A stretch of DNA of 64,000 nt from Octopus vulgaris (taxonomy: Eukaryota). Every line of letters begins with the position of its first letter. Within the stretch, counting starts at the first letter, position 1. Shown here one piece after another: positions 3,640-63,484 of this stretch. Where the stretch lies: NCBI GenBank assembly GCA_951406725.2, contig OX597815.1:21700001-21764000 (forward strand), read 5' to 3'. Made by a program: the position numbers and the translations under genes. Under the pieces are notes generated by a model that searched no databases, was not told the DNA's origin, and saw only the letters and a list, made by a program, of their open reading frames with translations.

Positions 3640-4812
3640 AATATCGAACAACAGGGAATGTTTTTTACCTGACCAGACTGAAATTCAAAACAGGTTTTTA
3701 CTTCACGCATTAGGGAACTCTTATACGCTGACGATTGTGACCTAGTGATAATCAATCGCTCTAAAACGGGCCTGCAATCTCTTGTAGCTGCATTTGACAC
3801 AGCTTGTGATAATTTTGGCTTGATCATCAACCTAGAAAAAATGGTTGTAATGTTTCAATTTGTACAAAATAATGGAAATCTGGACACTGAAATACACCTG
3901 CGAATTCAAAGGGCAACACATAAATAACAACACAAAATTGGCTCTTTACAAATCGTTTGTCTTACCATTCTTGTTGTATTCTTCTAGAACATGGACGTGT
4001 TATGAAAGACATTTCAAATTGTTAGAACGATTCGACCAAAAATGTCTTTGCCTCATTTTAAACATTAAACGGTATTTTAAAAAAATTCCAGGCCCAGATG
4101 TCTTTGCGTCTGCAGGCATCACTTCAATTGAATAAATTATTCTGAAAAACCAAATGAGATGGTCTGGTCATATACTTCGAATAGCGGATGAACGCACATT
4201 CAAACAGCCGTTTCATGGCGAGCTTGCAGAGGAAAAACGCAATCGGGTTAAACCTAAAAAGAGGTTTAAGGACGGTATAAGAACTACCATGAAGACACTT
4301 GGAATGGATCTAAAGGCCATAGAAACCTTTGCTCCGGATCGAGCCGGATGGCAAACAAAAGTGTGGGATGGTGTGAAAGCATTTGAGGAGACCAGGATAA
4401 CACATGCAAGACTCTAGAGCGATTAAAGAAGAATGCTGCGATCGAGAAGGCGAATCTCAGTGACCTTTTTGTGTGCACAGTTTGTGACAGACCATGCCTT
4501 TCTTTTGCTGGGCTCAAATCTCATTTGAGAACCCATGAAAAACGAACCTCCACCAACTATTCTCCCTATATATCTCTACACACCTTTCAATACCGTGTAT
4601 GCCATAAAGTTTGAAATTCTAACGAAGGCGTCAAAAGACATTTTAAGATCCACAAAGATCAGAATTTAACTGCAGCTCTTAGTGGTTCAAATCGAATGTG
4701 CAATCTATGTGGATGTCTCTTCAATACATTGTCTTGTTTAAAAAGCCACATCAGACGACACGATGGATCTAAAGTACAGGAGGTGGTCAGACTCTGCATA
4801 AAGAGTAGACAA

Positions 4813-26347: not shown

Positions 26348-26389
<42 letters not shown>

Positions 26390-26393
<4 letters not shown>

Positions 26394-26637
26394 TCAGCAA
26401 TAATTTAGATTCAAATGAATATGGTACTTAATTTAGATGCACCAGAATTCTGTATGGAGTGATTATAATCAAAATAAGCAACAATAATGACTCCGGTAAT
26501 GGAAAACCTCTATAATTGGCTGATGAGTGCTCAGCATTTTAAACTGTTGTAATACTTACAACATTTAATAAAATGATGTAGTACGAAACGATCGTACCAA
26601 ATTACCGGAGTCATTCTTGTTGCTTATTTTGATTATA
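26390..26637 (+). mobile_element. Non-coding hairpin element with a hammerhead in the loop (family 2), inserted in (TA)n
   Basis: Arms of about 37 bp (26464-26500 and 26601-26637) enclose the ribozyme. The leader GAATATGGTACTTAATTTAGATGCACCAGAATT is shared with the 51604 element. Confidence 0.8.
26516..26600 (+). ncRNA. Type I hammerhead ribozyme, canonical core
   Basis: UUGG-CUGAUGA-GUGCU...AGUAC-GAAA-CGAUCG-UA-CCAA. Stem I is UUGG/CCAA, stem II is extended (CAUUUUA/UAAAAUG, UGUUGUAA/UUACAACA), stem III is palindromic and the triplet is GUA. Confidence 0.9.
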
Positions 26638-49461: not shown

Positions 49462-50160
49462 TGGTTGTCTACTCCTTATGCAGAGTTTGACTATCTCCTA
49501 TACCTACACCTTAGCACCATAATGGCATCTGATGTGGCTTTTTAAACCAGACAATGTTCTGAAAAGACACCCACAAAGATTGCACCTCTGATTTGGACCA
49601 CCAAGAGCTGCAGATAAGTTCTGCTCTTTGTGGATCTTAAAATGTCTTTTGTGGCCTCCGTTGGATTTGCAAACCTTCTGGCATACACTGCATTCAAAGG
49701 TGTGCACAGACATACAGGCAGAATAGTTGGTGGAGGTTTGTTTTCCATGCGTTCGTAGATGAGATTTGAGGTCAGCAAAAGACAGGCATCGTCTGTCACA
49801 GACTGTGCACACAAAAAGGTCATTATCATTCACCTTCTCGATCGTTACATTCTTCCTTAGATCTCTTTTGAGTCTTACTTGCGTTATCCTGGCGTCTTCA
49901 AATGTTTTCACTCTACTCCATACCTTTGTTCGCCATCCAACTCGATCCGAAGCAAGCGTTTCTATATCTTCTGGAATCATTCCAAGTGACTTCATTGTAG
50001 TCCTTATGCTGTCCTTAAACCTTTCTTTAGGTTTACGCCGATAGCGTTTCCCCTCTGCAAGCTTACCATAAAACAGTTGTTTCGGCATGCGAACAATATG
50101 GTCATACTATCTCAATTGGTTCCTCAAAATCATAGCTTTAATTGAGGTGATGCCTTCAGT
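49462..50160 (-). mobile_element. RTE LINE 3' fragment with an open C-terminal ORF carrying three C2H2 zinc fingers
   Basis: ORF 49504-50088: MPKQLFYGKLAEGKR...KERFKDSIRTTMK, then CTVC..HLRTH, CSVC..HFKIH and CNLC..HIRCH. Same family as 3640-4815. Confidence 0.92.
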
Positions 50161-50167
50161 TTCTTCA

Positions 50168-50233
<66 letters not shown>

Positions 50234-50521
50234 TCAATAATAAAGGGTGAAATTAATTAATTAATTTAGAAATAATCATTAATTTCACCAAGTAGAGTTC
50301 GGCATGTAAAAGACCCATTCAAGGAAGGTTTAAGTAATACTAAGTAATTAAGGGTTCAGCAACGATTTGCCTCACCACACACCGAATTTAGAAATAGCAG
50401 TCAAAACGTTTTGGCTAATCTTTCTACTTAAAGGGAGATCCCAGCAAAAACAAAGCACTTAAAAAACAAACAACGCAGGCAAAAGAGAAAGAAATGACGA
50501 AAATCATTCTATATTAAGTTA

Positions 50522-50611
50522 CCTACGGACGCACGTTTCGGAATTAAGTCATAGCAGAGCATAAAAAATAAATAATATGTCTTCCCTGACTATTTTCCTC
50601 CTCAGCGTAGG
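50522..50611 (-). ncRNA. Type I hammerhead ribozyme, intact core
   Basis: Minus strand CCUACG-CUGAGGA-GGAA...UUCC-GAAA-CGUGCG-UC-CGUAGG: 6-bp stem I, long stem II, GUC triplet. Confidence 0.92.
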
Positions 50612-50715
50612 ACTCTTCAATTATAAATAATTGCGTCTAAATTATTAATAATTGTGCATTAAATTTAATACACAATTATTAATAATTGAGACGCAATTAT
50701 TTATAATTGAAGAGT

Positions 50716-50805
50716 CCTACGCCGAGGAAGAAAATAGTCAGGTAAGACATATTATTTATTTTTTATGCTTTGCTATGACTTAATTCCGAAACGTGCGTCC
50801 GTAGG
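50716..50805 (+). ncRNA. Mirror-copy hammerhead with core mutations (probably inactive)
   Basis: CCUACG-CCGAGGA-AGAA...UUCC-GAAA-CGUGCG-UC-CGUAGG. U4 is changed to C and G10.1 to A relative to the minus-strand copy. Confidence 0.8.
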
Positions 50806-51002
50806 TAACTTAATACAGAATGATTTTCGTCATTTCTTTCTCTTTTGCCTGCGTTGTTTGTTTTTTAAGTGCTTTGGTTTTGCTGGGATCTCCCTTTTAA
50901 GTAGAAAGAATAGCCAAAACTTTTTGACTGCTATTTCTAAATTCGGTGTGTGGTGAGGCAAATCGTTGCTGAACCCTTAATTACTTAGTATATATATATA
51001 TA

Positions 51003-51400
51003 CTTTCATCTGATGATACGTTGCGGTAGAGTCGTGGGATTTCTTTGGGTATGTATTCTAGGTTATCAGGCAAGGAATATTGCTCAAGGAGCTGCCTTCT
51101 AAGTCTTATGATGTTATCAGCCTCATGTATGCAAACTTGGTCAAGGGATGCACTTCGACACTTGCCGAAGGAATATGATACGATATTCAAAGGCATTCTG
51201 GATCGATGTTAAGCCTCCGCCGCCTTGCTTTCCTTTTAGGCAAAGCCGGTCTACGTCACTTTATGTGGAAATTATGTGTGCTTGTTAGTATTTTTCGGGT
51301 TTTCACATCAATGGTTCGTATCGCATCAAGCGTCCAATCTAGCAGCCCAAATGTTGGTATGAGTACTGGCACTGCAAACACATTGTGAGCCACTGTTTTA
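51003..51400 (-). mobile_element. R4/Dong-clade LINE RT C-terminal (thumb) fragment
   Basis: KTVAHNVFAVPVLIPTFGLLDWTLDAIRTIDVKTRKILTSTHNFHIK/DVDRLCLK matches the R4/Dong pattern AINTFAVPV..Y.FG...W....I..ID.KTRK.LT......H.KSDVDRLY. Confidence 0.85.
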
Positions 51401-51603
51401 TTGAATGTATGTATGTATGTATGTATGTATGTATGTATGTATGTATGTATGTACGTACGTACGTACGTACGTATGTATGTATGTATGTATGTATGTATGT
51501 ATGTATGTATATGTATATGTGTGTGCGTGTGGGTGTGTGAGCGCATGTGTGTGTATATATACAAGCGCACACGCACATATGTATATATATATATATATAT
51601 ATA

Positions 51604-51885
51604 CAGCAAAAAACAATTAAGATTCAAGTGCATTCCAATGAATTCAAAAGAATATGGTACTTAACTTAGATGCACCAGAATTGTTTATGGTATTAACCAT
51701 AAAAATGTGGGGTGATTATAACCAAGAAAAAAAGCAACAAGAATGGATTAGTAGTTTAGTACAATTGTTTCATACCAAGAACCATTTTATTTAATTTTAT
51801 TTTAAATAAAATGGTTCTTGGTATGAAACAATTGTACTAAACTACTAATCCATTCTTGTTGCTTTTTTCTTGTTTTTTTTCTTGG

Positions 51886-51890
<5 letters not shown>
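51604..51890. mobile_element. Palindromised member of family 2 retaining only the 3' half of the hammerhead
   Basis: The leader is homologous to 26390. The hairpin 51717-51890 has GAAA-CAATTG-TA-CTAA (51825-51840) and its reverse complement, with no CTGATGA. Confidence 0.8.
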
Positions 51891-62018: not shown

Positions 62019-63484
62019 TGTTGCAGTACAGCTGTTGGGGTTGGGTGTCGGTGAACCGTTGCTTCAAAGTAACTCCCTCATTTGCCAGCTTTTTGTGCTG
62101 ATGTGCTTTTGTTTCTTTATCTTTTCATTGCATTGGTAACTTTCTGCCATTTAGGCACCTCACCGTCACTTTCGCCACACGATCAGTTTGAGTGGTCCCA
62201 AGCAGGGAGAGGCATAACTCGGGAGTATCGTCTTATTGTTTTGTTGTTGTTTGGGGCTTTCAATTGCTGTCGTTCGTAGTCATGTCGTGGCTCTTGAAGG
62301 CGGTGTTTCTTTTGTTTTTGTTGCTGTTGTTTCCACTCTTGGTGTTGCTGCCACTTTTGCTGTTGTTGGTGCTGCTTCCAGTCGTATAGCTGGTACTGCA
62401 AGTACTGTTGCTGTGGTTGCATGAAGTTGTAGTGGCTGTGGTTGTTTGTGTTGTGGTTGCTTCTGTTGTTGTTGGTGTTTAAATTGTGGTGTTAGCAGTA
62501 ATAGAGGCCTTCTTTCAGCTGTCTATTTCTGTTGTTGTTAGGTGAAAAAAGCCTTGAAGTGATAAGTATTTCTTCAGCTGTAACATCGAGGTCTCCAGCC
62601 CTTTCATACCATACCTCATACAGATGCTGCCCTCCTGGGATCTCTACTAACTCGGGGATTTTGTCTAGTATTTCTAGTTTCACCGAATCAAAATTTCCAG
62701 TCGCATTCCAACTTTCTTTTCGGAATGTATTTCTAGAAGCGTGATAATATATTCCAAAACTACACACTTCACCATTCATCGGGAATCTAGTCCTGGTTGT
62801 ATATTCGAGATATTTACTAGAATCGCTCTTCGTTCCAAGTAAATCTGTATCCTTGTGAAATTTTTAGTTCTCTGTGGGACGGTAGAGAGCTTCTTAGTTA
62901 GGCTTTCTGAGCGGCAAGTAATTCAGATATATCCGAATGTTTGTGGTATGTCCTACAGAACTGATTTCTTCTCATATATTCCTTAAACAGAATTCAGCTT
63001 CGTCTAAAGGTTATACACTCTATTTTGTGTCTTTCCATCGATAAGCGTCTATACTGAATTGTTTTTCTTTTCTTTTGTTTTAAAATGTGTTGCAATATAG
63101 TGAATGTAGCTTTTCTTTGTTCTAGTCTGTTGACGTATTTCTCTGCCTCTTCTAAATGTTCATGCTTATTGTCTGGTGATAAGAGATTGAAAACGTTTGT
63201 GATCCTGACAAAACAAATACTTTTTGCCGTGTTTTCACTCTTACTACGGCCAGTTTTAATTACAACCATGTCTGTATTATGGTAAGGTAGAAAATGACTG
63301 CGAAAGACTGCTTCACCTTCAAAACCTCCTCTCACCAACACCGTGCTCGTTTATTTACTGGGCGATAAGACAACGCCATTTTGAATTGTTTTTCAATAAG
63401 CAGAAAAATTTTCATTCTTTAAAATTCTGCTCCGTAAGGTGAGAAACAAACATTTGATCGGTCCCTTATGGTTCCACAGGCAAT

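Follow-up and report, generated by a model that had tools for sequence, protein, structure and literature searches.

A head-to-head insertion of a non-coding hammerhead repeat in Octopus vulgaris: a retrozyme-like element probably mobilized by Penelope-like machinery

Results

Organization of the locus

The inverted repeat at 50230 to 50991 is located in a 64,000-nt stretch of Octopus vulgaris DNA (the window) and is flanked by the (TA)n target microsatellite on the left (50173 to 50229) and on the right (50991 to 51002); nearly all of the sampled copies of the repeat ended in (TA)n. Alignment of the arms confirmed the 655-nt palindrome without a spacer that had been proposed from the sequence alone. 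The arms, of 327 nt (50337 to 50663, minus strand) and 328 nt (50664 to 50991, plus strand), are arranged head to head around a centre at 50663|50664, each covers positions 1 to 327 of the repeat monomer, and they differ by 10 substitutions and one indel. The interval stated for the palindrome had been 50230 to 50991; its outermost 107 nt (50230 to 50336, minus strand) was unpaired and was present in the left arm only.

This unpaired segment, the tail, lies between two fixed end sites of the repeat. Its outer limit is the long end (...TTATTGATAAT; 50230, minus strand), and the right arm terminates at the short fixed site (...TTACTTAGTA; 50991, plus strand). The tail contains a predicted hairpin (GGUGAAAUUAAU...AUUAAUUUCACC; 50246 to 50289, minus strand) with a fold z-score of -2.85, which was equalled by 1 of 200 shuffled sequences. 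A conserved core motif is present in the left arm (50375 to 50397, minus strand), with its mirror copy in the right arm (50931 to 50953, plus strand), and may represent a protein-binding site. No open reading frame of at least 90 amino acids was found within 50230 to 50991. Among the Rfam matches listed for the whole 64-kb window, only microsatellite-driven miRNA matches were present; those to miRNA families at the palindrome centre were below their gathering scores and were rejected as a reflection of the hairpin.

The junction is formed by the self-complementary hexamer AAATTT (50661 to 50666), which was identified as natural monomer sequence (...CCTTCAAATTTAATAC...) from the upstream sequence of other copies. 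Since the hexamer is natural to the monomer and is included in both arms, the missing spacer is explained by a 6-nt microhomology join. Contigs from public short-read runs had loose ends at 50661.

Hammerhead motifs

The sequence-only reading had assigned a hammerhead to each strand. A motif was indeed present on both strands, at 50611 to 50522 (minus) and 50716 to 50805 (plus), but the plus-strand copy had two changes in its core. Read from the centre outward, each arm comprised a 6-bp stem I (CCUACG/CGUAGG), the core, a long stem II and the segment GAAAC-GUGC-GUC. The minus-strand motif, a type I hammerhead, had an intact CUGAGGA core, the G10.1-C11.1 pair and a 4-bp base of stem II, and its predicted cleavage site was between 50528 and 50527. 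The plus-strand copy carried U4>C (50723) and G10.1>A (50729), rare derived alleles that were found in 2/51 and 1/51 close copies, respectively, and is likely to be impaired.

Scores against the Rfam Hammerhead_1 model were 21.7 bits (E = 0.017) for the minus copy and 15.3 bits (E = 2.1) for the plus copy, compared to a gathering score of 34. Despite these weak scores, the motif was supported by compensatory changes between subfamilies, both in stem II (GGAA/UUCC, GAAA/UUUC and GAGA/UCUC) and in stem I, where a C-G pair was replaced by U-A. Stem III was self-complementary, with a computed duplex energy of -10.2 kcal/mol; hammerheads of this form are described as needing a dimer (PMC4209133).

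In one young subfamily (L049, L295, L320, L327 and others) the core CCGAUGA, which contains the U4C change, was fixed and accounted for 39 of the 127 ribozymes tallied. Copies of this subfamily were 97-100% identical and formed arrays of up to 7 units. According to PMC3088659, U4C lowers hammerhead activity in vitro, yet a ribozyme with this change works in a viroid in vivo.

The repeat family

A search of the genome (2.8 Gb) with one arm yielded 3,061 candidates, 40 of which were scored. Exact patterns were found 2,875 times for the core motif, 1,721 times for ribozyme stem III and 565 times for the short end followed by TATA, compared to 0, 10 and 0 matches, respectively, for the controls. 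The length of the arms and the thousands of family copies, set against 0-10 matches for the reversed-pattern controls, excluded a chance origin of the palindrome.

Other copies continued for approximately 166 nt upstream of the point that corresponds to the palindrome centre and then entered the next unit, which defined a monomer of 599 nt (L008). Monomers of the different subfamilies were 583-601 nt in length and formed head-to-tail tandem arrays of up to 7 units, with a ribozyme motif in one polarity only and covarying stems in every array unit. The tandem monomers were dispersed and low in GC, had no coding capacity and no LTR, and had no RT-like match in the arms; the present locus has less than one monomer per arm. 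By its sequence, the locus is one insertion of a non-coding tandem-monomer repeat of approximately 590-600 nt with a predicted type I hammerhead. Contigs from four presumed-RNA runs also matched the family; such contigs cannot show strand, circles or the present locus and were not counted as evidence.

The element at 556 to 1134 of the window had been assigned to the same family. This assignment did not hold, as that element belongs to a sister family: the common sequence was limited to a core of approximately 57-66 nt (80-82% identity), which includes the conserved motif, and to the terminal hairpin predicted in the tail. The sister insertion has arms at 746 to 902 and 969 to 1125 (157 nt, 94% identity), one minus-strand hammerhead (969 to 920) in a 66-nt loop, and its own tail of approximately 130-150 nt that contains an internal duplication. 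The genome-wide search for this sister family gave 3,535 candidates.

Architecture of the insertions

Insertions were compared in samples anchored on the short end, the core motif and the ribozyme, which were taken as the first places on contigs C1-C3, were chosen by exact motifs and overlapped one another. The short-end sample comprised the first 100 of the 565 places (99 loci and the window). Sixty of these 100 loci had two arms, arranged head to head as an inverted 5' arm, and 40 had one arm alone. In 55 of the 60 two-armed loci the partner arm ended 86-114 nt past the short site (approximately 105 nt), and in none did it end at the short site; of the remaining five, two extended beyond the analysed DNA and three were short, odd pieces. 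About 20 of the 30 loci in a long-end sample had two arms, and no partner ended at the long site. In these 55 loci the one-sided segment that resembles a Penelope-type tail was thus 86-114 nt long, compared to the published 30-40 bp for Penelope-like elements. The family had a (TA)n insertion bias.

A ribozyme motif on both strands was found in 9/59 ribozyme-anchored loci, all nine of which were head to head. A whole ribozyme was present on both arms in 2/100 short-end loci (L147 and the present locus), 4/57 core-motif loci (L282, L295, L301 and L302) and 6/59 ribozyme-anchored loci (L282, L295, L301, L302, L316 and L320). The existence of related double-ribozyme copies, which the sequence-only reading had made a condition of its proposal, was thus borne out at seven other loci, and the palindrome is not unique to the present one. 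The position of the junction differed at every double-ribozyme locus. The double-ribozyme form is a recurrent minority outcome of variable arm length, seen where both arms are long.

Arm lengths varied widely and could exceed one monomer. The short-end arm was longer by more than 40 nt in 20/55 loci and the long-end arm in 14/55, and 60/153 arms extended more than 10 nt past the predicted cut. The inner ends of the two arms fell within 25 nt of each other in 17/55 loci, compared to 6.1 expected (p<1e-4), and in 13/48 compared to 5.4 expected after loci near the cut were dropped. Equal arm lengths, in contrast, were not enriched (3/55, with 4.5 expected). Coincident inner ends without equal lengths suggest one shared RNA end or stall.

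Arm ends accumulated immediately 3' of the predicted cut: of the 80 arms at risk, 20 ended within the first 25 nt, compared to 3/83 and 4/60 in the neighbouring windows (p = 2e-5; p = 0.007 for short-end arms only); the width of this window was chosen after the data had been seen, and windows further 3' also had rates of 0.10-0.18. This accumulation hints at cleavage or folding of the ribozyme within the template but does not prove it. Insert-free junctions had an overlap of at least 3 nt in 6/16 cases, compared to 6.4% of random joins, a count that leaves out the 32 of 48 scored junctions with extra or unmatched bases. At near-symmetric junctions the short-end arm was the longer in 18/21, and it may be the cDNA end of this arm that invades or folds back.

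Three independent insertions (L051, L135 and L175) had an identical inversion junction, with inner ends at 96-97 and 91-92 nt and an overlap of 2-3 nt, which marks a hot spot.

Origin and fate of the present copy

The arms of the present locus had seven non-majority alleles in common, two of which were rare (2/80 and 6/57); shared rare alleles indicate that both arms came from one source. All 10 differences between the arms were rare derived alleles, found in 0-2 of 48-90 copies, and were private to one arm, six on the left and four on the right. A comparable pattern was observed at L316 and L302, where units differed by 1-3 within the locus and by 12-19 from the nearest other locus. A-to-I editing was ruled out as the cause of the arm differences, since the 10 changes are of mixed type.

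Among the contigs of four short-read runs, which covered the family, none spanned the locus. An artefact of assembly or read fold-back is nevertheless very improbable as its origin, and so is an inverted duplication that arose later and independently of the insertion. Rare derived alleles on both arms point to change at or after insertion, as opposed to read fold-back; the right arm ends exactly at the short site of the family, with (TA)n next to it, an arrangement found at 565 other places; and the same geometry was seen in 60/100 loci. The palindrome is accordingly an aged genomic structure with family-typical ends, as had been claimed for it.

The inversion point had also been placed beyond the ribozyme, and this was correct: each arm extends beyond the predicted cut by 136 nt and includes the ribozyme. 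It follows that the template was uncut or circular at that point. In predicted folds, read-through RNA from either strand formed a single duplex of -537 to -553 kcal/mol, in which forcing a hammerhead cost 125-129 kcal/mol compared to 2-4 kcal/mol in isolation. Each strand has a single ribozyme, which does not allow a unit-length circle to be cut out. This copy is likely to be a dead end that could at most give rise to double-stranded RNA.

These results bear on the resemblance to ambisense viroid-like RNAs that had been drawn from the sequence alone. Were the locus the DNA copy of an RNA with functional ribozymes of both polarities, a hammerhead on each strand would be expected, as found here and at seven other loci, and a CCGA core is tolerated in the young subfamily. 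The monomer and its arrays, however, carry the motif in one polarity only, which is at odds with the defining feature of ambisense viroid-like RNAs; the ribozyme on the other strand is not a distinct one but the first in inverted form, and the plus-strand copy has lost G10.1. Moreover, the junction lies at a different position in all of the double loci, the double form is infrequent (2/100 and 6/59), the 655-nt duplex would bury both ribozymes at the folding cost given above, and the family has thousands of genomic DNA copies, whereas such RNAs have no DNA phase. We consider such an origin extremely improbable and the analogy unsupported.

Candidate driver elements

The O. vulgaris genome contains intact open reading frames that encode a reverse transcriptase (RT) and a GIY-YIG endonuclease (781-aa frames at L254, L256, L257 and L269), located in (TA)n and in some cases with the same head-to-head, two-ended form. 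Further young RT + GIY-YIG Penelope-like elements in (TA)n were found at L261 and L266. Both L257 and L261 had inverted 5' arms (766 nt and 100% identical in L261) and tails of approximately 30-35 nt. The search scored 150 of 6,136 candidates, and divergent clades would be missed by it. Among the 46 loci that it yielded from 148 matches, no pLTR sequence was in common with the monomer, and the tails were approximately 30-35 nt, not 105 nt, in length. The flanks of the family loci likewise yielded no common sequence and no Penelope-type frame continuous with any arm, and the interval 50230 to 50991 has no RT + GIY-YIG frame of an autonomous Penelope-like element. Judged from their sequences, the RT + GIY-YIG elements indicate that the necessary machinery and geometry exist in this genome. 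Hammerheads and (TA)n targets have been reported for Hydra-clade Penelope-like elements (PMC8557442).

Discussion

Proposed mechanism of insertion

The data are best explained by a trans-acting RT/GIY-YIG endonuclease from a Penelope-like element, which would have inserted a non-LTR retrozyme into (TA)n and left a ribozyme on both strands as a by-product; we regard this explanation as probable. The monomer and its arrays, the (TA)n targets, the two fixed outer ends approximately 105 nt apart, the head-to-head geometry and the variable inner ends were observed directly. The enzyme would nick both target strands in (TA)n, and cDNA synthesis on retrozyme RNA would be primed from one nick at the short site and from the other nick at the long site. 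Both cDNAs, which have the same sense, would then extend for variable distances around circular or multimeric RNA, and their ends would be joined head to head, often via microhomology. At the present locus, both cDNAs would have been copied from one source. The ribozyme would still have been uncut, so that both could continue through it and end together 136 nt upstream of the predicted cut, at the self-complementary AAATTT, which would have allowed them to pair without a spacer; a ribozyme on both strands would simply result from both cDNAs having run long. This scheme agrees with in vitro work on a Penelope-like protein from a lizard, by which both strands are nicked and extended; synthesis begins at two sites inside the RNA, which bound the tail, and needs no ribozyme cleavage (PMC11167929).

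Self-priming has been proposed for Penelope palindromes (PMC3846280). Here, a single cDNA would have snapped back on itself and been copied into the inverted arm, which would account for the rare alleles common to both arms, the excess of near-symmetric junctions and the 18:1 skew as to which of the arms has the loop. As the whole mechanism it is unlikely: short-end arms occurred alone in 40/100 loci, and the longer short-end arms in 20/55 loci, together with the tail that the long-end arm always has and the short-end arm lacks, mean that neither arm can alone have templated the other. The excess of longer short-end arms at near-symmetric junctions is not predicted by a symmetric join of two cDNAs and could be explained by a partial fold-back step; folding back can be a sub-step of the join within the proposed two-cDNA insertion.

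A more specific version of the trans-insertion model is conceivable, although we regard it as somewhat less likely than not. It postulates twin priming, in which both target nicks prime on the same folded retrozyme RNA at sites separated by approximately 105 nt, or three times the published tail length. Both cDNAs would end at a common position, in many cases the ribozyme cut or its stem I, before being joined head to head. Under this version the spread of the U4C-weakened subfamily would imply that slow cutting favours spread. No report of twin priming in Penelope-like elements was found in the open-licence PMC and bioRxiv literature.

Comparison with known systems

By the features that can be tested in DNA, the repeat belongs to the animal non-LTR retrozymes, and its insertions bear a scar of Penelope type. 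As far as the accessible sections of PMC7229834 and bioRxiv 10.64898/2026.07.22.740005 describe them, animal non-LTR retrozymes are likewise non-coding, AT-rich tandem monomers with one type I hammerhead each, are dispersed as monomers to multimers and co-occur with Penelope-like elements. The present repeat differs in its monomer of 583-601 nt, compared to a typical 150-450 bp, and in its two-armed inverted insertions with fixed ends, which are not described in those sections. The likeness described here is at the level of DNA.

The sequence-only reading had also likened the locus to the inverted pLTR arrangement of Penelope-like elements without an open reading frame, and the geometry agreed. 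As described in PMC3846280, PMC8557442 and PMC11167929, insertions of endonuclease-bearing Penelope-like elements share with the present repeat a head-to-head inverted 5' arm, junction palindromes, partial tandems, a tail-like segment at one end, a (TA)n bias and a hammerhead in the repeat. The octopus repeat, in contrast, has no open reading frame, no homologous autonomous partner was found for it, and its tail is approximately 105 nt and not the published 30-40 bp. The Schistosoma Penelope-like elements of PMC4209133 resemble it in having dual minimal hammerheads approximately 100-700 bp apart on opposite strands (the cores here are approximately 120 nt apart), but the short palindromic helix III, the 6-bp helix I and the tandem non-coding monomer set the octopus repeat apart. 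Ambisense viroid-like circular RNAs, as presented in PMC10162972, also have a ribozyme motif on each strand; these circles have no DNA counterpart, and both polarities of a single monomer contain a ribozyme, whereas a one-polarity monomer and an inverted DNA insertion were found here.

Pairs of hammerheads on opposite strands have therefore already been published for Penelope-like elements, and the double ribozyme is not a new system. The new details are the tail of approximately 105 nt, the coinciding inner arm ends and the accumulation of arm ends at the predicted cut. The repeat family, its tail, the end statistics and the spreading U4C subfamily were not found in the open-licence PMC and bioRxiv literature (excluding supplements and Repbase). 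The family bears on how Penelope-like elements form inverted ends and tails, and on whether they move retrozymes. Being small and non-coding, with two fixed ends, measurable junctions and dated insertions in the thousands, it allows these questions to be tested directly in the genome and offers a compact substrate for in vitro work.

Neighbouring elements in the window

Other elements were noted in the same window. A third, unrelated hammerhead (26520 to 26596, plus strand; core CUGAUGA) lies in the loop that separates the arms of a 37-bp inverted repeat within (TA)n, and the segment that contains it, 26380 to 26637, is another mini element of like architecture. A relative of the 26380 family lies 600 nt from the palindrome, at 51603 to 51890; it consists of a 67-nt perfect inverted repeat (51728 to 51794 and 51802 to 51868) with a one-sided extension and is also located in (TA)n. 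The left flank of the palindrome contains the truncated 3' part of a LINE-type element, with C2H2 zinc fingers (49504 to 50165, minus strand), of which an 83% related copy was found in the opposite orientation at 4202 to 4780, within 3851 to 4780. The right flank has a degenerate reading frame (51003 to 51392, minus strand) that may be a fragment of another non-LTR retrotransposon. Finally, a 123-aa open frame of ordinary composition and with no Pfam match (62492 to 62863, minus strand) is a possible exon.
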